The position numbers and the translations under genes are program-made. Under the pieces are notes generated by a model. That model made no database searches. It was not told the DNA's origin and saw nothing but the letters and a program-made list of their open reading frames with translations. Positions 4,252-21,438 of a DNA stretch of 64,000 nucleotides are shown here, piece by piece (within the stretch, counting starts at the first letter, position 1; the number at the start of each line of letters is the position of its first letter). The stretch is from Escherichia phage vB_EcoM_Kelasse. The stretch lies in sequence record MW749001.1; one strand, written 5' to 3'.

Positions 4252-4664
4252 TATTTTCCAGCCTCAAATGCCCGCATGTCTTGAATATGCTTAATAGCAA
4301 ATCCGCGTGATTTGATAGCATCAAGAGCTCCGCTACAGAAATCCAATAAAATTCCCCAATATTGCAATGAAGTATCAACTTTTAAAACATCCTTATCAGC
4401 TGATAGAACTGTCTTCATTTCTGATTTCTCATAACGGTCCATACTAAATTCATCACCATCTCCTCGTCCCGAGTAGTAGTCTAATTTAGCTTTAAGAGCA
4501 ACTTTTTTCTGTGCGTCAATTCTAAGCATTTCCTTTTTAATACTTGAATGCTTATTAAGCCATTTACTATATAACATCACATTATTAGCTGCTTCATACT
4601 GTAATTTAGTCGAATCTATAAACACATCTTTCTTCAATTCTTCTTGAAGATCTTCTAATTTCAT
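4251..4664 (-). CDS. uvsY: UvsY recombination mediator
   Basis: 137-aa ORF, size and position as in T4. Confidence 0.8.
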   Translation of the reverse strand: MKLEDLQEELKKDVFIDSTKLQYEAANNVMLYSKWLNKHSSIKKEMLRIDAQKKVALKAKLDYYSGRGDGDEFSMDRYEKSEMKTVLSADKDVLKVDTSLQYWGILLDFCSGALDAIKSRGFAIKHIQDMRAFEAGK

Positions 4665-4730
4665 ATTGTTCTCTATTCAATTGTTATTGGATGGACTTAG
4701 ATTCATTATACCACGTTTATACGTGAAGCA

Positions 4731-5129
4731 TTATACTCTGTTACTGGAAGCCAGTTGTAGTTTTATCTGCTCAATATCATCAGGGTTATCGATGACTGAA
4801 AAGCGTATTTCTACTATCAGAGTATAATCATCATAAACTGGTATTACATTAACTGCTAATTTATCAATACGTGGCTCGTAGTTTCTTACTGCGCTTTCAA
4901 TGTTACGCTCAACAGTATCAGCAGTAAGAGGAGTCATATTCTCAAAAAGCTGATCAGATAAATCGCATCCAAATTCTGGGTCAAATGGCCTTGACCCTTT
5001 CCTGGTTGTAATAATTCCCAAAAGGCTATTTTTAATTGACCTTAATCCAAGAGATCTGGAAACGTCTTTGTCCCAATCCATTTTCATTTCTGGGTCAATG
5101 TCAGAATAAAGCTTATTAATATTTGCCAT
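4731..5129 (-). CDS. 25: gp25 baseplate wedge subunit
   Basis: 132-aa ORF, synteny with 26/51. Confidence 0.8.
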   Translation of the reverse strand: MANINKLYSDIDPEMKMDWDKDVSRSLGLRSIKNSLLGIITTRKGSRPFDPEFGCDLSDQLFENMTPLTADTVERNIESAVRNYEPRIDKLAVNVIPVYDDYTLIVEIRFSVIDNPDDIEQIKLQLASSNRV

Positions 5130-12395: not shown

Positions 12396-12425
12396 ACTAT
12401 AACACAACACGAGGGACTTGTAAAC
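12396..12425 (-). promoter_or_regulatory. Early promoter (GTTTACA, 17 bp, TGn-TATAGT), cassette copy A
   Basis: -35 at 12425..12419 and -10 at 12401..12396 on the minus strand; 54 bp identical to 27721..27774. Confidence 0.55.
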
Positions 12426-14482
12426 TACATTTTGAACTTTTTAGACATTCCGTTGATGTTAACCAAAGAAGCCAAGATTTGAGAAACTTCGTTTTCCTCT
12501 TCTTTTGATTCTTCTACAAGGAATTGATTAAATCCAGCCATTGGACGAACTTCACCAGTTTCCATTAGATGGTCGCCATCATATACCGATTCCTCTAATT
12601 GTTCAGAAGGAGGAACGATTGTACCTTCTATTAGATACTTGTTATAAGCAGTTTCTTTCATAAAGTACGTGCTCACTTTATTAATCTTCAGTAAAATTCC
12701 ACGCGGTAGAATAACTTCAGCTTCTGATGGAAATCCTGATAAATGACCTGGAACGATAACTTTGATTCGCTCAGCTCCTTTAATTACCATACCCACGCTA
12801 GTTTCAGCATCTTCATTAGCATATGTAGAATGACTACCCATATGCATCAAATCTTCTGCATCAACGGAACCTTCTCCTTCGCCAGAAAATACTGCGCCGG
12901 AATCATCTAGAGCCATATAGTTTTTACCATGCTCACCGAAGATATTTGGTTTAAGCGATGTGGATACGAAGTTCTTGAAATAGAACATTTTATTTTCAAT
13001 GTTATGACGCAAAGTTTTAAAGGTAACTTCTTGTCCACGGTAAAGTGTAGTTCCTGGAGGAAGAACTGAACCTTTAGCGAATGCAGAATCAAGCGTCTCA
13101 ATATGTTTAATAGCTCGTTCCATATATTCTTCACGGGTAGAATCTGGTTTACCCAAAAGGAACGAGTTCATTTCAACATATGAATCTGCACAATAATCTT
13201 CAATTACATCAGACTCAGCCTGAGTTAATCCTTTTGGAGTTACTTCAGTACTTGCATATTCATATGCCTGAGCGGCAGATTCATTAATCAATTTATAAAT
13301 GCCATTCATGACAAATTGAATAATAGCTGTCTTTTCATCTGGTGTAGCTTTAGAACCTTTAACTAAATCATTGATAATTTTCTTAATAACATCAAAGCTA
13401 TTAGAAATATTAATGTCAGCAAGATCGCTTAAAATTTTATCAGTTTTATAATCAAAGAATTCTTTATTCTTTAAATATTCTTGAGAACCTTGATATGTTA
13501 TATCGCTCTGCAGCTTGATAGATGGATCGCGTAAACGTGCATGGGCCAATGCAATATGATTTCGGAAGTTTTCTAGTTCATAATCGTTAGATTTAAAACG
13601 AGAAGCACTTCTCATACCACCGATAGCTCCTTTGCTAAAGTTTGAACCAATCTGAATAACGCCAGAGTTCATCGGACCTTCTGCTTTATATACCGGAACT
13701 TTAGATTCAAACTCTTGATATTTCTTAGCAGCGAAGCTATCACCCTGAAGTGAAGCATCAACAGTAGAATATTGAGCTTGTGCTGCTAATCGACGACTAA
13801 TTTTAGTTTTCTGAATAACAGCTTGATCCGTGCGCTTATCATTTTCTAAAGCAATAGAAGCAGCAACAGCGACAGCTTTAGGAACAGCATTACCTGTTTT
13901 AACGTCTACATAAACATCACCAACCTTTGATTCAACTTTTGTGAATAACTCAGTTGAAATAGGAGGTACACCTGGAATGTCTTCTAAATTGGCATTTTTA
14001 CGGTAAACCATAATATATGCATATTTCTTATCATAGTCCCAGATTTCCTTTAAAAGAACATATCGACCTGCTCCTTTAGTACGTACTAAACGGTCAGCAA
14101 TAACTTGCATTTGACGAGCTGCGCCATTTGTTTTACTCTTTAGTACGCGGAATAAGCATGCATCAATTTTATACTGTTTCATTGTTTGAAGAGCAGTATC
14201 AAAAACAGCATTAATGACGCCAATTGGATTTCCACCCAAGTTTTTAAGCTTAACTAATGATAGTTTCTCATTAACACCTATCATTACGATATGCATCATT
14301 TTGTCGCCTGGCTTAACGTTTTTATTCGTATCACCGCCAGAGGTGTATGTACAAAATCTAAATCCAGGAAGCACGCTTTCTTCACCGGCTTGAATAGCAA
14401 AAATTTGTGGTATTTTATGCTTAGGATTTAAGTTAACAACCGGCGCCGAAGCGCCGTCAAATAATTCTGTAATAAGTTCCAT
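12425..14482 (-). CDS. Alt-like ADP-ribosyltransferase paralog (685 aa)
   Basis: N-terminus MELITELFD... shared with Alt; candidate ART motifs YRGQ, FVSTSL, EAEVILPRG; starts 3 nt after the alt stop. Confidence 0.7.
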   Translation of the reverse strand: MELITELFDGASAPVVNLNPKHKIPQIFAIQAGEESVLPGFRFCTYTSGGDTNKNVKPGDKMMHIVMIGVNEKLSLVKLKNLGGNPIGVINAVFDTALQTMKQYKIDACLFRVLKSKTNGAARQMQVIADRLVRTKGAGRYVLLKEIWDYDKKYAYIMVYRKNANLEDIPGVPPISTELFTKVESKVGDVYVDVKTGNAVPKAVAVAASIALENDKRTDQAVIQKTKISRRLAAQAQYSTVDASLQGDSFAAKKYQEFESKVPVYKAEGPMNSGVIQIGSNFSKGAIGGMRSASRFKSNDYELENFRNHIALAHARLRDPSIKLQSDITYQGSQEYLKNKEFFDYKTDKILSDLADINISNSFDVIKKIINDLVKGSKATPDEKTAIIQFVMNGIYKLINESAAQAYEYASTEVTPKGLTQAESDVIEDYCADSYVEMNSFLLGKPDSTREEYMERAIKHIETLDSAFAKGSVLPPGTTLYRGQEVTFKTLRHNIENKMFYFKNFVSTSLKPNIFGEHGKNYMALDDSGAVFSGEGEGSVDAEDLMHMGSHSTYANEDAETSVGMVIKGAERIKVIVPGHLSGFPSEAEVILPRGILLKINKVSTYFMKETAYNKYLIEGTIVPPSEQLEESVYDGDHLMETGEVRPMAGFNQFLVEESKEEENEVSQILASLVNINGMSKKFKM

Positions 14483-14485
14483 GAT

Positions 14486-16579
14486 TTATCCTTGAACGAA
14501 CTTGTAAGGCATGTTTGTAATATCTATGCAAGACGCAATAATTCCAAGAGATGATTCTACTTTCTGTTTAACGTTTGATGAAACAAATGATGCAAAGTCA
14601 ACTCTGTCTTCTATTTCAATATCACCTGTCATTGCAACCAATTCACCAGTTTCCATTAAATGGTCTCCATCATAGATTACCGATTCGGTGAGCTCTTCCG
14701 TAGTCATAACTTCAGCTTGAATGAGTTTTGTATTATTAGATGTTGTTCCGTCATTATTAGAAGCATCAGTTATTTTATTAACTTTGACCATCAATCCACG
14801 CGGTAGAATAACTTCAGCTTCTGTTGCTATTCCGAGACTTCCTGGATATACAACATTAACTTTATGAGCTCCATCAATTGCCCATCCTATTTGAACTTTA
14901 ACGTATTCAGGATTTTCTTTATACGCTCTTATTTCGTTTGGATTAATAGTTATTCCTTCTTCATTTTTATCAACTGTTAATTCATTGCGAGCTTCTGGTT
15001 CTAAAAGACCAATACCAGCATGTGTAATTCCAAAACGTCCAAAAATGATAGGAGTTAAAGAAGTAGATACAAAATTTCTGAAGTAGAACACTTTATTTTT
15101 AACTAACGCTTCATATATAGGAGCAGTCATACTTTGAGCACGATAAACTGTAATGCCTTCTGGTATACGGTCACCATTTTCAAAAGCTGAATCTAAGTTA
15201 TTTATAGCAGATTCAATTTCTTTTTCACTCATTACATCATATCGTTCTGGATTGTAACGACCTAAAAGAAGATTATTGATGTCAGTATATCCTGAACCGC
15301 AATATTCTCTAATGCCACGCTTTTGTGATGGAGTATATTTAGAACCATCGCGGGCAATAGTAATATCAATCATTGGACCAGCACCAATTCCAGAAAAACT
15401 GTAAATCATTCGTTTGAGGAATTTAGTTTTTGCTGCGTTCCAGGAATTTTTAGTTATTTCTTCCCAGACTTCATCTGGTTGTCCTTTACGATTTTTATTA
15501 TGATTAGCAAGCCATTTATCTTTATAATCTTCAAAGAATTGATTTATAGCTGCTGCGTATTTCTCTAAACATTTTATTGAAGTAGTTGGTTCATTTTTAA
15601 TTGCATTAAAAATTACTTCTTTAATTTTTTCTGAAACTTCACCGACTTGACTCATTGGAAAGAATTTATAATCATAGTGAAGTTCATCTGCCGTTCCTTC
15701 AGCAATAATTTTTGCTGCCTTTGTTTTAGAAGCTAATGAATTAATTCCAATTTTCATTTCTTCTGCTTCGGGAATTAAAGGTGCAGTAGCTGGTTTATTA
15801 AAATTAGCTGCTGTAGATTCATACTTCTGGAATAATTCACTTTCAAATCTAGAAGATTCCAATGACTGGCTTTGTGCAATTGCTCTACGGGAAATTTTAA
15901 CTTTAACGATTACAGCTTGGTCAGAACGTTTATCATTTTCTTGCGCAATAGATGCTGCAATTGCTTCATTTTTGGTTACTTGAGCTCCAGTATCTTTATT
16001 AATATAAACATCACCGACCTTCGATTCAACCTTAGTAAAGAGCTCGGTACTAATTTCCGGAACCCCTGGAATGTCTTCTAGTGATACATTTTTGCGATGT
16101 ATAAGAATATATGCATACTTTTTATCATAATCCCAGAGTTCCTTAAGAAGGACGTATCTGCCACCTGAACGACTACGGATAAGTCTATCAGCAATAACTT
16201 GAATTTGTCGAGCTTGGCCAGCAGTTTTAGACTTAAGAATACGAAGCATACAAGCATCAATTTTATATTGACGCATTGTTTGCATTGCAACAGTAAAAAC
16301 TGAATTGATATAATTAATTGGGCTTGGACCAAGACCTTTTAATTTAGCAATTGAACCTTTAGCAGTTAATGTAAAAGGAACAATATGCATCATTTTGTCG
16401 CCCATTTTTAAATCACGATTAGTATCACCTCCAGATGTATAGGTACATAAACGAAAGCCTGGTTGTTCAATTGCATCATCAACATGAACTGAAAAAATTT
16501 GTGGTATTTTCTTCTTTGGATTTAAGTTTGTAATCGGAAGAGTAGTATCTTCGTCAAATAATTCTGTAATGAGTTCCAT
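14486..16579 (-). CDS. alt: Alt, packaged RNA polymerase ADP-ribosyltransferase
   Basis: 698-aa ORF (697 from the second Met); N-terminus matches remembered T4 Alt; YRAQ, FVSTSL, EAEVILPRG motifs. Confidence 0.8.
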   Translation of the reverse strand: MELITELFDEDTTLPITNLNPKKKIPQIFSVHVDDAIEQPGFRLCTYTSGGDTNRDLKMGDKMMHIVPFTLTAKGSIAKLKGLGPSPINYINSVFTVAMQTMRQYKIDACMLRILKSKTAGQARQIQVIADRLIRSRSGGRYVLLKELWDYDKKYAYILIHRKNVSLEDIPGVPEISTELFTKVESKVGDVYINKDTGAQVTKNEAIAASIAQENDKRSDQAVIVKVKISRRAIAQSQSLESSRFESELFQKYESTAANFNKPATAPLIPEAEEMKIGINSLASKTKAAKIIAEGTADELHYDYKFFPMSQVGEVSEKIKEVIFNAIKNEPTTSIKCLEKYAAAINQFFEDYKDKWLANHNKNRKGQPDEVWEEITKNSWNAAKTKFLKRMIYSFSGIGAGPMIDITIARDGSKYTPSQKRGIREYCGSGYTDINNLLLGRYNPERYDVMSEKEIESAINNLDSAFENGDRIPEGITVYRAQSMTAPIYEALVKNKVFYFRNFVSTSLTPIIFGRFGITHAGIGLLEPEARNELTVDKNEEGITINPNEIRAYKENPEYVKVQIGWAIDGAHKVNVVYPGSLGIATEAEVILPRGLMVKVNKITDASNNDGTTSNNTKLIQAEVMTTEELTESVIYDGDHLMETGELVAMTGDIEIEDRVDFASFVSSNVKQKVESSLGIIASCIDITNMPYKFVQG

Positions 16580-16602
16580 CATATCCTCTCTAGTGTTTAT
16601 TC

Positions 16603-16820: not shown

Positions 16821-18280
16821 AAACCAGTTACCTCATGAAAATCGCCAAATACATCTTCGAACGTATTAGCTTTAGTTTTATCTTCACGTAAACGAATCGC
16901 AATCGGAAGAAATAATTTAACGTAATCAGTGCGACCATCAGATTTTAACCAACCGTTGCATTCGCACTCTAGAATTTTTCCAATATAATAATTTTGATTT
17001 TCCATAATGCGAGTACGATCAAGTTCATGCGATTTTACACCGGCTTTATCTTTTAAGCCTGAACCAGCATTTACTTTAATTTTTCCACACTCTGATTCAA
17101 GAACGAAACCACCTGCTTTAGTAGGGTCTTTACGGTGAGGATAAATTCCTACAATTTTTAAATCAACATCAATTACTTCTTTAAATTTATAGAGATTTTT
17201 TGAACGAGCATTTTCCCATAATCCATCGATATTTTTGAGAATAATACCTTCAAGACCTTGGTCAATATACTTTTTGTAAATTACCTTAGCTTCATCTAGG
17301 TTATTTACTACTTGGTTTTCAATTAAAATTACTTTATCATAGCCTGATGTCATTTGTTCTAGTTTAGAAAAACGTACATCATATTTTAAACGAAATGCTG
17401 GAAGACCATATATTTCTACTAATGGAACATAGTCCCAGACCTGAAACTTCATGCATTGTGCTTCTTTTTCAGAAATGGTTCCCTTTAAAGATTTATTGGC
17501 GATGCCATTAGATGCAGTACGTGATTCAGCTACTTCGGCGAATTCTTTAGCTTTACTAATTTCAGGATAAGCATCAAAAAGAAAATCTAGGCCTTCTGGT
17601 TCCTTTTCAACTTGCTCATGGTATACCAATTCGCCATCAATTAACACACCTTCTGGATGAATCTGGCGGGCTTCAGCAGTCATTTTGATTAACTCTTCCT
17701 TAAGAAGATCTAATCCTAGATATTCATTGCCAGCTCGTGATAAAAGACGAACATCATCTAATTCATCACCTCTGACTTCGGCAAAGCACCGAGCTCCATC
17801 AGCTTTTAATTGGGCAAAGGCTGGAAATTTGATATTCTTATTAATGCCTTTTTCATCATAAGAACTTGCCAGCATTTGAGGTTGTTCAGGAATTAAACCT
17901 GGCCAAACTTTATTTGCAATAGATACTGATGCACCGCATTCAAGGTCTCGCATCATCACCCGACGCAAAACTTCAACATCATCTTTTTTACCATCGGTGA
18001 TGTATCCAGTTAATTCCTCAATCGCCGCATTTCCAGTCAATTTCCGAGTAGCTAACGTGAATTCAATGAAGTCAAGCATATCGGTAAGAGTCAACATTCC
18101 AAAACTCTGGGTAGCAATACCAGGTTTAGGCCATTTCTTGATATAATACTGTAACCCACGAGAATAAGTCAGACGATATACTCGTTTAAGCAATTCATTA
18201 TCTTTATTCTTTTCAAGAATTGCTTGCTTCTGCTTAGTTGAACCAATAGATGCTATTTCGTTCAGAATTTTAAGAATCAT
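16817..18280 (-). CDS. 30: ATP-dependent DNA ligase
   Basis: 487-aa ORF matching remembered T4 DNA ligase almost residue for residue. Confidence 0.92.
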   Translation of the reverse strand: MILKILNEIASIGSTKQKQAILEKNKDNELLKRVYRLTYSRGLQYYIKKWPKPGIATQSFGMLTLTDMLDFIEFTLATRKLTGNAAIEELTGYITDGKKDDVEVLRRVMMRDLECGASVSIANKVWPGLIPEQPQMLASSYDEKGINKNIKFPAFAQLKADGARCFAEVRGDELDDVRLLSRAGNEYLGLDLLKEELIKMTAEARQIHPEGVLIDGELVYHEQVEKEPEGLDFLFDAYPEISKAKEFAEVAESRTASNGIANKSLKGTISEKEAQCMKFQVWDYVPLVEIYGLPAFRLKYDVRFSKLEQMTSGYDKVILIENQVVNNLDEAKVIYKKYIDQGLEGIILKNIDGLWENARSKNLYKFKEVIDVDLKIVGIYPHRKDPTKAGGFVLESECGKIKVNAGSGLKDKAGVKSHELDRTRIMENQNYYIGKILECECNGWLKSDGRTDYVKLFLPIAIRLREDKTKANTFEDVFGDFHEVTGL

Positions 18281-18546
18281 TGTTCATCCTTTAGAGTTTG
18301 GTTTACAGCTCTATTATAAATCAATTCATCATTAAGCTCAGTCAAAGACCTGTGGTACGTTGTTCTAACTTTATTTCCTTGCATCCAGTGCTTGACGTAA
18401 ATGAAACCTTGCTCTACACATTTTTTAAAAATTCGTTCGTCTTTTTGAGCTCGGAATTCTGGATTGCATCTAAAAAATTGATTTACGTGACCGTAATCAC
18501 GTGTAGTATTACCTTCATTTTCATAAATAGTGTGAACGACAAACAT
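18277..18546 (-). CDS. 30.1: Hypothetical protein
   Basis: 89-aa ORF overlapping the ligase start. Confidence 0.5.
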   Translation of the reverse strand: MFVVHTIYENEGNTTRDYGHVNQFFRCNPEFRAQKDERIFKKCVEQGFIYVKHWMQGNKVRTTYHRSLTELNDELIYNRAVNQTLKDEQ

Positions 18547-19385
18547 TAGAATGCTCCTTGGAAAATATTATCACCACTAGTAGGTCTATTATACAAATAC
18601 TCTATGCCACCAGGTTTAATATAGTTCCATGTCTGAAACGGATGTGTCTGATATGGATGATATAGATGATTATAAGGATTAAATCCAGGAGTTCTCCAGG
18701 TAGTGTTCCAAGGAAAAGAATCGTTTTTGATCATCTTCTCAATTACATCTTTTATAAATTTTTCACTATCAAAACTTTCTTTATTTTCCTTCGATGGAAA
18801 AAGCTTATTCTCTACATCATTCCATGTATAAACTCGCTGTGCAGTTTTTGGAATACTGTCACGCTCTCCTCGAGCCATCCAATAAACTGGAACATTTAAT
18901 ATTTCACTCGCATGATCGCAGTGGTGAGCGAGATCGTCAATATAACAAATTACGTTATATTTCTCTTTTGCCTTTTTGAACAACTCTTCTTTTGAAGAAT
19001 CATGACCACACATCAATATTTCTGAGAAGGCACCAGGAAAAAGAGCATTCAAATTAAATTGACGATTCAGCAAAGCATCAATAGAATCACCCAATGCTGT
19101 AACAGCTACAAAATTATAATCTTCTTTTAATTTGTTAATTACACACAGGGCATCTTTATATGGAGACAAGTAACGAATAAAATCTGAACGATTGTATTTT
19201 TCAATTAACTTGACGCCAAGTTCTTCATCACAATTAAAGAGTTTACCAGGAGAAATAAATTTCTCATCTTGGATCATTTTTAAAATATGTTCTAACGGAA
19301 GATTATATTTCTGAGCAAAATAAGGAAGGCCTGATTGCCAGCTTAAACATACTCCATCAATATCAGTCAAAATAGTAGGCTTCAT
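18546..19385 (-). CDS. 30.2: HAD-like hydrolase domain protein
   Basis: 279-aa ORF; N-terminal ILTDIDGV resembles HAD motif I. Confidence 0.55.
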   Translation of the reverse strand: MKPTILTDIDGVCLSWQSGLPYFAQKYNLPLEHILKMIQDEKFISPGKLFNCDEELGVKLIEKYNRSDFIRYLSPYKDALCVINKLKEDYNFVAVTALGDSIDALLNRQFNLNALFPGAFSEILMCGHDSSKEELFKKAKEKYNVICYIDDLAHHCDHASEILNVPVYWMARGERDSIPKTAQRVYTWNDVENKLFPSKENKESFDSEKFIKDVIEKMIKNDSFPWNTTWRTPGFNPYNHLYHPYQTHPFQTWNYIKPGGIEYLYNRPTSGDNIFQGAF

Positions 19386-19846
19386 AGAGAGTCTCTTAAT
19401 AGGTTTAACACATCAATAAATTCAGCTTCGGTTAGTATTGTATCATCTTTTGTTAGACCACTAGCCATGCTGTGCTTCAAAACTTTTCCTTTTGAGGCTT
19501 GTAAGGCATCACGAAACCCCTTGTTTTGAATCGCTGCTTCAAAATATGCATTTGTATACAACTCTTTCCACGCTGGGGAGTATCTTGAAAATGGAACTCC
19601 CAGCCAGAAGAGGGTCCCACGGTCCTGAGCTCTTGCATAAGACCTTCCAGCTTGTTGGGCGGCAAGCCCGGATAACCCAAATATACGACGTTGTTGTTCA
19701 ACATTTTTCACCTTGCACCCTTGGAGGAATCCTTCAAGACCTCCAAATTGAATACCATCCATAACGAAAGGCCATTTGGCGAAATTACTTAATGCACATG
19801 ATGGCCACCTAAAATTGCTTCTAATCTCTAACTCAGACATTTTCAA
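19382..19846 (-). CDS. 30.3: NADAR (YbiA/DUF1768)-like protein
   Basis: 154-aa ORF; LSNFAKWPF..DG....E.F.Q..K pattern resembles the YbiA family. Confidence 0.5.
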   Translation of the reverse strand: MKMSELEIRSNFRWPSCALSNFAKWPFVMDGIQFGGLEGFLQGCKVKNVEQQRRIFGLSGLAAQQAGRSYARAQDRGTLFWLGVPFSRYSPAWKELYTNAYFEAAIQNKGFRDALQASKGKVLKHSMASGLTKDDTILTEAEFIDVLNLLRDSL

Positions 19847-20039
19847 TGCTTATAATTTCAACATCAGCCCAATGACCATAGCAAGGAAGACGAAATTCAA
19901 CTGGCCAGTTAGGGTCCTTTTCTAATATAATAGACTTAACTTGTGGTTCTTCATGTTCATCTGTATACGGATTTTTATCTGTTACTTTATATGTGACCTT
20001 AATGTACTGAATTCCAAAAATCTTATTAATTATATTCAT
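19833..20039 (-). CDS. Hypothetical protein
   Basis: 68-aa ORF in the 30.x block. Confidence 0.45.
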   Translation of the reverse strand: MNIINKIFGIQYIKVTYKVTDKNPYTDEHEEPQVKSIILEKDPNWPVEFRLPCYGHWADVEIISIENV

Positions 20040-20233
20040 ACTAATTCCTTTAATCCATAGATAGGAGATAATTCATCACCCATACGAAGGTCTTCATTTC
20101 CATCTACCCAGGAAACAATATAAGCATCTTTTACTTGAACATCTCCCAATTTAAATGCAGGTAAAACCTTAGAAATTAATCCAGGTATACCAACTCCCTT
20201 TAATTCAACAGTTTGACCTAAAAAGAATTTCAT
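20036..20233 (-). CDS. Hypothetical protein
   Basis: 65-aa ORF in the 30.x block. Confidence 0.45.
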   Translation of the reverse strand: MKFFLGQTVELKGVGIPGLISKVLPAFKLGDVQVKDAYIVSWVDGNEDLRMGDELSPIYGLKELV

Positions 20234-20520
20234 TAGAACCTCATCTGAAAACCATGCGATTTAACATTACCGCCGCCAATATCAGAAATGTTAATTTCAC
20301 GCGCAATTGAAGGGTCAATGTCAATTTCACGATTAAGTTTAGTGATAGCTAAAGTATCGCGGCCATTTACAGTACGGAACTCTAAAGGGCAGACTACATT
20401 AACATAGTTTTTAATCGATTCACTAGTAGGCTGCAAATGAGCAGGAAGGTCTTTAGGTGCCTTAGAGAAAACCACTTCACAGAAATTTTTGCGGGTATCA
20501 AAATAAGTAGTCATAAACAT
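20233..20520 (-). CDS. Hypothetical protein
   Basis: 95-aa ORF preceded by GAGGAAAA Shine-Dalgarno and a UUCG hairpin. Confidence 0.5.
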   Translation of the reverse strand: MFMTTYFDTRKNFCEVVFSKAPKDLPAHLQPTSESIKNYVNVVCPLEFRTVNGRDTLAITKLNREIDIDPSIAREINISDIGGGNVKSHGFQMRF

Positions 20521-20537
20521 AGTATTTTCCTCAGTAA

Positions 20538-20551
20538 GGGGCCGAAGCCCC
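20538..20551 (-). other. C(UUCG)G hairpin
   Basis: ggggccgaagcccc (plus strand). Confidence 0.45.
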
Positions 20552-20561
20552 TCATTTTATT

Positions 20562-21385: not shown

Positions 21386-21415
21386 AACTTTATGCAATCT
21401 TTGGAAAATAAAAAA

Positions 21416-21433
21416 GGACTCCCGAAGGAGTCC
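21416..21433 (-). terminator. C(UUCG)G hairpin terminator with a U-tract
   Basis: ggactcccgaaggagtcc; minus-strand RNA continues UUUUUUAUUUU. Confidence 0.55.
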
Positions 21434-21438
21434 TCAAC

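Follow-up and report, generated by a model that had tools for sequence, protein, structure and literature searches.

The window, the whole 64,000-nucleotide stretch of Escherichia phage vB_EcoM_Kelasse (MW749001.1) that was analysed, comes from a Tequatrovirus, and its first 25 kb are 98.3% identical to the BASEL phage Bas39. Genes are arranged as in T4: two alt-like genes, alt.1, ligase gene 30, then 30.1, 30.2, 30.3, 30.4–30.9, rIII and 31. The position of T4 gene 30.3, between 30.4 and 30.2 and near the ligase gene, is occupied by an ORF in the same syntenic setting, as expected of an ortholog. The features of this ORF and its surroundings are as follows.

19382..19840, minus strand: coding sequence of gene 30.3/adfN, 152 aa plus stop; predicted phage-type NADAR DNA ADP-ribosylglycohydrolase
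19841..19846, minus strand: TTG-AAA extension inside the end of gene 30.4, set apart from 30.3 on the basis of the T4 and Bas39 annotation and the published residue numbering
19733..19735, minus strand: codon GAA encoding the catalytic glutamate E36, the residue in contact with the distal ribose in NADARs; conserved without exception (74/74 family members) and aligned to the YbiA Glu
19712..19714, minus strand: codon AAG encoding the conserved catalytic lysine K43; present in 72/74 members and aligned to the YbiA Lys
19472..19474, minus strand: codon CAC for H123, which defines the phage NADAR group; invariant in 74/74 members
19388..19429, minus strand: C-terminal alpha-helix, residues 138–151, from the AlphaFold2 model and the full-length alignment to T4
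19477..19704, minus strand: 30.3', an ORF of 75 aa nested in 30.3 in the +1 frame, annotated in T4 as "internal translation"
18546..19385, minus strand: gene 30.2, HAD-superfamily phosphatase-like according to motifs, profile and Foldseek; "hypothetical" in T4 and Bas39

In the preliminary description the gene was an ORF of 154 aa at 19382..19846 on the minus strand, beginning with TTG. The reading frame is uninterrupted over this interval, but the start was corrected from the TTG at 19846 to the ATG at 19840, which shortens the product to 152 aa. Judged from the sequence and its relatives, this ATG is most likely the true start: gene 30.3 is annotated in both T4 (NC_000866) and Bas39 (FriedrichMiescher) with an ATG start, 459 nt and 152 aa. 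The gene was therefore taken as 19382..19840, because published residue numbers then fall exactly at E36 and K43. The six nucleotides upstream probably do not belong to the translated part of 30.3. The motifs that had been quoted for the product are found in the translation as ALSNFAKWPFVMDGIQFGGLEGFLQGCKVK and WKELYTNAYFEAAIQNKGFRDAL, but the dot spacing of the quoted pattern was slightly off: three residues, not four, separate F and E (F-GGL-E), and W...AYFEAA spans 6.

The stop codon of gene 30.4 and the ATG of 30.3 share 8 nt (ATGTCTGA), and the start of gene 30.2 overlaps the stop of 30.3 (ATGA). From 18277 to 20520 on the minus strand, genes 30.6, 30.5, 30.4, 30.3, 30.2, 30.1 and 30 follow one another directly or overlap by 1–8 nt, leaving no gaps between them. 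The ATG of 30.3 lacks an obvious Shine-Dalgarno sequence, which, together with the gapless chain, suggests translational coupling along the genes.

Relatives of the gene and of its surroundings

The 1.3 kb around 30.3 matched 690 phage records in total, with 99.6% identity to Bas39, Bas40 and vB_EcoM-101117BS1, and about 97% to RB3, T6 and others. At the protein level the product is identical to that of Bas39 (152/152 residues) and aligns end to end with T4 gp30.3 at 150/152 identical residues (99%). The two differences, Q22K and I125M, both lie at positions that vary within the family, and we infer that they are neutral in this allele.

Homologues of gp30.3 were detected by tblastn in 1510 of 50,697 phage records, mainly large T4-like myoviruses whose hosts include Escherichia, Klebsiella, Aeromonas, Acinetobacter, Vibrio and others. 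This distribution, together with a PF08010 match at E 5.6e-70, places the ORF far beyond chance.

Among 80 IMG/VR loci, the close relatives retained the order 30.4-30.3-30.2-30.1-ligase. Distant relatives were examined as a set of 66 loci with less than 60% identity, in which the ORFs within 3 kb of the match were clustered. No recurrent neighbour of 30.3 occurred in more than six of these loci, the two commonest being a 30.2-like gene and ligase. A conserved partner gene in distant relatives was accordingly rejected, and 30.3 is therefore regarded as a free-standing module and not as part of a conserved operon.

Assignment to the NADAR superfamily

The product matched the Pfam family Phage_30_3 (PF08010) with 234 bits, where the curated cut-off is 36 (E 5.6e-70 to 5e-70), and with coverage of profile positions 1–138 of 138. 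This was the sole match in a Pfam scan at E <= 10, in which PF08719 (NADAR) gave none. A phmmer search of the product against PDB sequences returned nothing significant, PADLOC and NCBIfam models matched neither gp30.3 nor gp30.2, and the PHROGs match was phrog_652, labelled "unknown function". A Pfam search for NADAR/DUF1768 had been proposed as a check of the NADAR assignment; it gave no direct match, and the relationship appeared through the family.

A search of 5.8 billion proteins yielded 104 relatives of the 30.3 product, among them several that JGI lists as "YbiA (DUF1768 family)". The family profile and alignment were based on 74 full-length members. This profile matched E. coli YbiA (2b3w) with E 0.0046, and in the same alignment the gp30.3 motif SNF...E36..Q..K43 was set on the catalytic motif of YbiA. 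Eleven of the 74 members matched PF08719 individually (best E 1.5e-7). The AlphaFold2 model of the product, computed on the 74-member alignment, was confident (pLDDT 94.4, pTM 0.89) and displayed the helical core flanked by small beta-sheets that characterizes the YbiA/NADAR fold. Because direct matches in PF08719, PDB, PADLOC and NCBIfam were lacking, the link to the NADAR superfamily rests on profile, transitive and structural evidence. The NADAR (YbiA-like) identity proposed in the preliminary description agrees with this evidence and with the presence of E36, K43 and H123.

Within the N-terminal motif, S18, N19, F20, E36 and Q40 were invariant across the family. In the AlphaFold2 model H123 directly follows the last beta-strand (residues 120–122). 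Phage NADARs carry His where the YbiA family has Glu and the DarG1 family Asp (PMC11543638, PMC11125620, PMC12945103). The location of H123 after the last strand fits this statement, the positional equivalence of the residue being taken from the literature.

Comparison with known NADARs placed the product closest to AdfN-T4 (gp30.3, NP_049816; PF08010). The two agree in length (152 aa), in the position between 30.4 and 30.2, in E36, K43 and H123, and in the C-terminal helix; they differ by Q22K and I125M only, and the phage is a Bas39-like Tequatrovirus, not T4. DarG1, the antitoxin of DarTG1 (Geobacter lovleyi NADAR 8bat; E. coli C7 DarG1), has an N-terminal extension that is absent from the core-only product described here, and its catalytic residue in the last strand is Asp, whereas the 30.3 product has His123. 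DarG1 adjoins the DarT1 toxin gene, whereas 30.3 is flanked by 30.4 and 30.2 with no DarT1 gene; moreover, AdfN-T4 cannot replace DarG1 in its antitoxin role in uninfected cells. YbiA of E. coli (2b3w) and the Phytophthora NADAR (8bau), both PF08719, carry Glu in the last strand in place of His. Compared with these canonical NADARs the 30.3 product is shorter, consists of the core only, and gives no direct PF08719 match. The canonical and YbiA-type NADARs examined in one study remove cytidine-linked ADP-ribose, unlike the T4-type enzyme (PMC12945103). AdfN-Bas32 and AdfN-Bas60 (T5-like, Vequintavirinae) are likewise phage-encoded orphan NADARs that counter DarTG1, but they belong to other NADAR clades, were acquired independently and, unlike the T4 type, are active in uninfected cells and also help unrelated phages.

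Predicted counter-defence function and alternative explanations

The gene and its function are already known and have been published as AdfN (anti-DarT factor NADAR); the window adds one allele, 99% identical to that of T4 and 100% to that of Bas39. A bioinformatic NADAR assignment was reportedly made by de Souza and Aravind before the in vitro work of 2024 and the genetic work of 2025.

In vitro, T4 gp30.3 cleaved ADP-ribose off guanosine in DNA but left thymidine-linked ADP-ribose in place (Toxins 2024, PMC11125620), and guanine-ADP-ribose hydrolysis has been reported for the T4 protein in three studies (PMC11125620, PMC11825919, PMC12945103). The T4 enzyme does not remove cytidine-ADPr (2026, PMC12945103). 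In recombinants between RB69 and T2 or T4, DarTG1 resistance mapped to the 3' part of 30.3 (Nat Commun 2025, PMC11825919). In the same study, deletion of adfN from T4 or T2 abolished plaquing on DarTG1 hosts, ectopic adfN rescued RB69, and the purified protein removed ADP-ribose from DarT1-modified DNA (PMC11825919). Function was impaired by E36A, K43A or truncation. In deletion and complementation experiments with T4 and T2, AdfN proved both necessary and sufficient to make T-even phages resistant to DarTG1, but not to DarTG2, and the BASEL Tevenvirinae tested (Bas35-47), including Bas39 with its identical protein, were all resistant to DarTG1 (PMC11825919). A T4 transposon screen, in which insertions in 30.3/adfN were lost specifically on DarTG1 hosts, bore this out (bioRxiv 2025).

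Taken with these studies, our results indicate with a probability of about 0.93 that the ORF is an ortholog of T4 30.3/adfN and encodes a core-only NADAR glycohydrolase countering DarTG1. What was shown here by computation is the identity of the gene, its synteny, its fold, the conservation of the catalytic residues and the completeness of the C-terminus. Enzymatic activity and the counter-defence phenotype are carried over to the product from experimental work on the T4 protein, to which it is 99% identical. In the RB69 allele of 30.3 a frameshift deletes the C-terminal helix; this allele has reduced activity and leaves the phage DarTG1-sensitive (PMC11825919). Unlike this type, the allele in the window is full length with the helix intact. 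Given its full length, three catalytic residues and intact helix 138–151, the allele should, as far as its sequence allows a prediction, behave like AdfN-T4. The NADAR counter-defence interpretation originally given to the ORF is thus supported, and can be put in a sharper form: a phage-type NADAR, AdfN, directed at guanine ADP-ribosylation by DarT1. It follows that a real counter-defence function was recoverable from a weak motif by a reader with only the sequence at hand.

According to the proposed mechanism, DarT1 would ADP-ribosylate guanine in the phage DNA when a DarTG1 cell is infected by a T-even phage, and replication would be blocked. AdfN would cut the N-glycosidic link between guanine and ADP-ribose, returning the DNA to its unmodified form so that replication could proceed. 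Catalysis would involve E36 and K43 of the N-terminal SNF...E..Q..K motif together with the phage-specific H123. The target of the enzyme would be the modification and not the toxin, and thymine ADP-ribosylation by DarT2 would not be reversed.

T4 gp30.3 expressed alone did not rescue E. coli from DarT1 (PMC11125620). Likewise, AdfN-T4 could not neutralise DarT1 in uninfected E. coli and rescued non-T-even phages only weakly (PMC11825919, PMC11125620), so that a picture in which the enzyme alone suffices is incomplete. Full activity of AdfN-T4 has been reported only in T-even infections, where it depends on a further phage factor. This dependence is a property of the system as published, and the present locus does not by itself account for it.

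A broader role, in which the enzyme also acts on guanine-ADP-ribosylated RNA or on the products of other guanine-specific ADP-ribosyltransferases, has been raised by published authors and is conceivable, if rather unlikely. Representatives of all NADAR families, phage NADARs included, are reported to remove G-ADPr from both RNA and DNA in vitro (PMC12945103), and the approximately 1500 Straboviridae records span many host genera, a range wider than the known distribution of DarTG1 obviously demands. The activity on RNA is an in vitro result, however, and the phenotype reported so far concerns DarTG1 only. Such a role would extend the AdfN explanation and not replace it.

The internal frame 30.3', listed as an internal translation product in the T4 GenBank record, might be the functional product of the locus, instead of or besides the NADAR protein; we consider this highly improbable. 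The frame was open in 14 of 15 close relatives, but the start ATG was lost in two of the 15 and a stop codon interrupted the frame in a third. Its amino-acid identity among these relatives was 53–85%, compared with 85–99% for 30.3, indicating faster divergence. An equally long open +1 stretch arose in 13–20% of synonymous-codon shuffles of 30.3 (P about 0.13–0.20). Furthermore, E36A and K43A impair function although both mutations are located ahead of the 30.3' start codon (PMC11825919). The candidate was rejected as a real gene, as its conservation does not go beyond what the amino-acid sequence of 30.3 imposes, and 30.3' is unlikely to be a functional gene.

Two Alt-like ADP-ribosyltransferase genes lie 3–7 kb away on the same strand, and the 30.3 enzyme could in principle reverse the ADP-ribosylation by the phage's own Alt, ModA and ModB and thereby tune host takeover. 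The Alt and Mod enzymes, however, target arginine in proteins or couple RNA to proteins. The NADARs tested so far have ADP-ribose on a nucleobase as their substrate, and a conserved association between 30.3 homologues and ART genes was absent from the 66 distant loci, which leaves this explanation with very little credit. An auxiliary metabolic role as a housekeeping YbiA-type N-glycosidase on riboflavin-pathway intermediates is scarcely plausible, since an invariant His (74/74) stands at the position of the family-defining Glu of YbiA proteins (PMC11125620) and the T4 ortholog is dispensable on plain K-12, with a DarTG1-specific phenotype.

Gene 30.2 and other features of the region

The residues D8xD10G, K132 and D150-D151 were invariant in the gp30.2 family alignment. 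The family profile matched the 5'(3')-deoxyribonucleotidase 2jao (E 0.025), which was also the best Foldseek match (E 5e-9). The AlphaFold2 model of gp30.2 had a pLDDT of 81.7, with residues 239–279 below 50, and the C-terminal tail of about 50 aa was variable and disordered. In five IMG/VR loci of one Tevenvirinae subgroup (L010, L011, L013, L014 and L036; approximately 4456–5037) the 30.2 homologue aligned over about 194 of 279 residues. These loci keep the HAD core with the tail absent or replaced, and the tail is therefore seen as a variable add-on.

Homologues of gp30.2 were present in 1451 phage records, compared with 1510 for 30.3, with matching counts per host genus in Straboviridae. 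Because both genes are widespread in T4-like phages, this co-occurrence shows no functional coupling. It is very doubtful that gp30.2 is the phage factor needed by AdfN-T4 for full activity: a role as required cofactor was unsupported, and 30.3/adfN is the only gene given for DarTG1 in the text of the T4 transposon screen. Gene 30.2 is treated as context and not as part of the AdfN function described here, and as a weak lead.

The window contained no tRNA genes and no Rfam matches, and promoter and terminator scans between 16.5 and 23 kb gave counts not above those of shuffled sequence. The Alt-like ADP-ribosyltransferase genes form a tandem of full-length copies at 12425..14482 and 14486..16582 on the minus strand, encoding 685 and 698 aa that are 41% identical to each other. 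T4 has at this position one alt gene and the short remnants alt.-1 and alt.-2; two Alt-like copies are also annotated in relatives such as Bas39 and teqhad.

Two GC-rich tetraloop hairpins were found in gaps of the otherwise tightly overlapping gene chain. The first, GGGGC-TTCG-GCCCC, lies at 20537..20552 in the intergenic gap between 30.7 and 30.6. The second, GAGGACTCC-TTCG-GGAGTCCTT followed by a T-run, lies at 21414..21435 on the minus strand, just after 30.9, and on the coding strand it resembles an intrinsic terminator.
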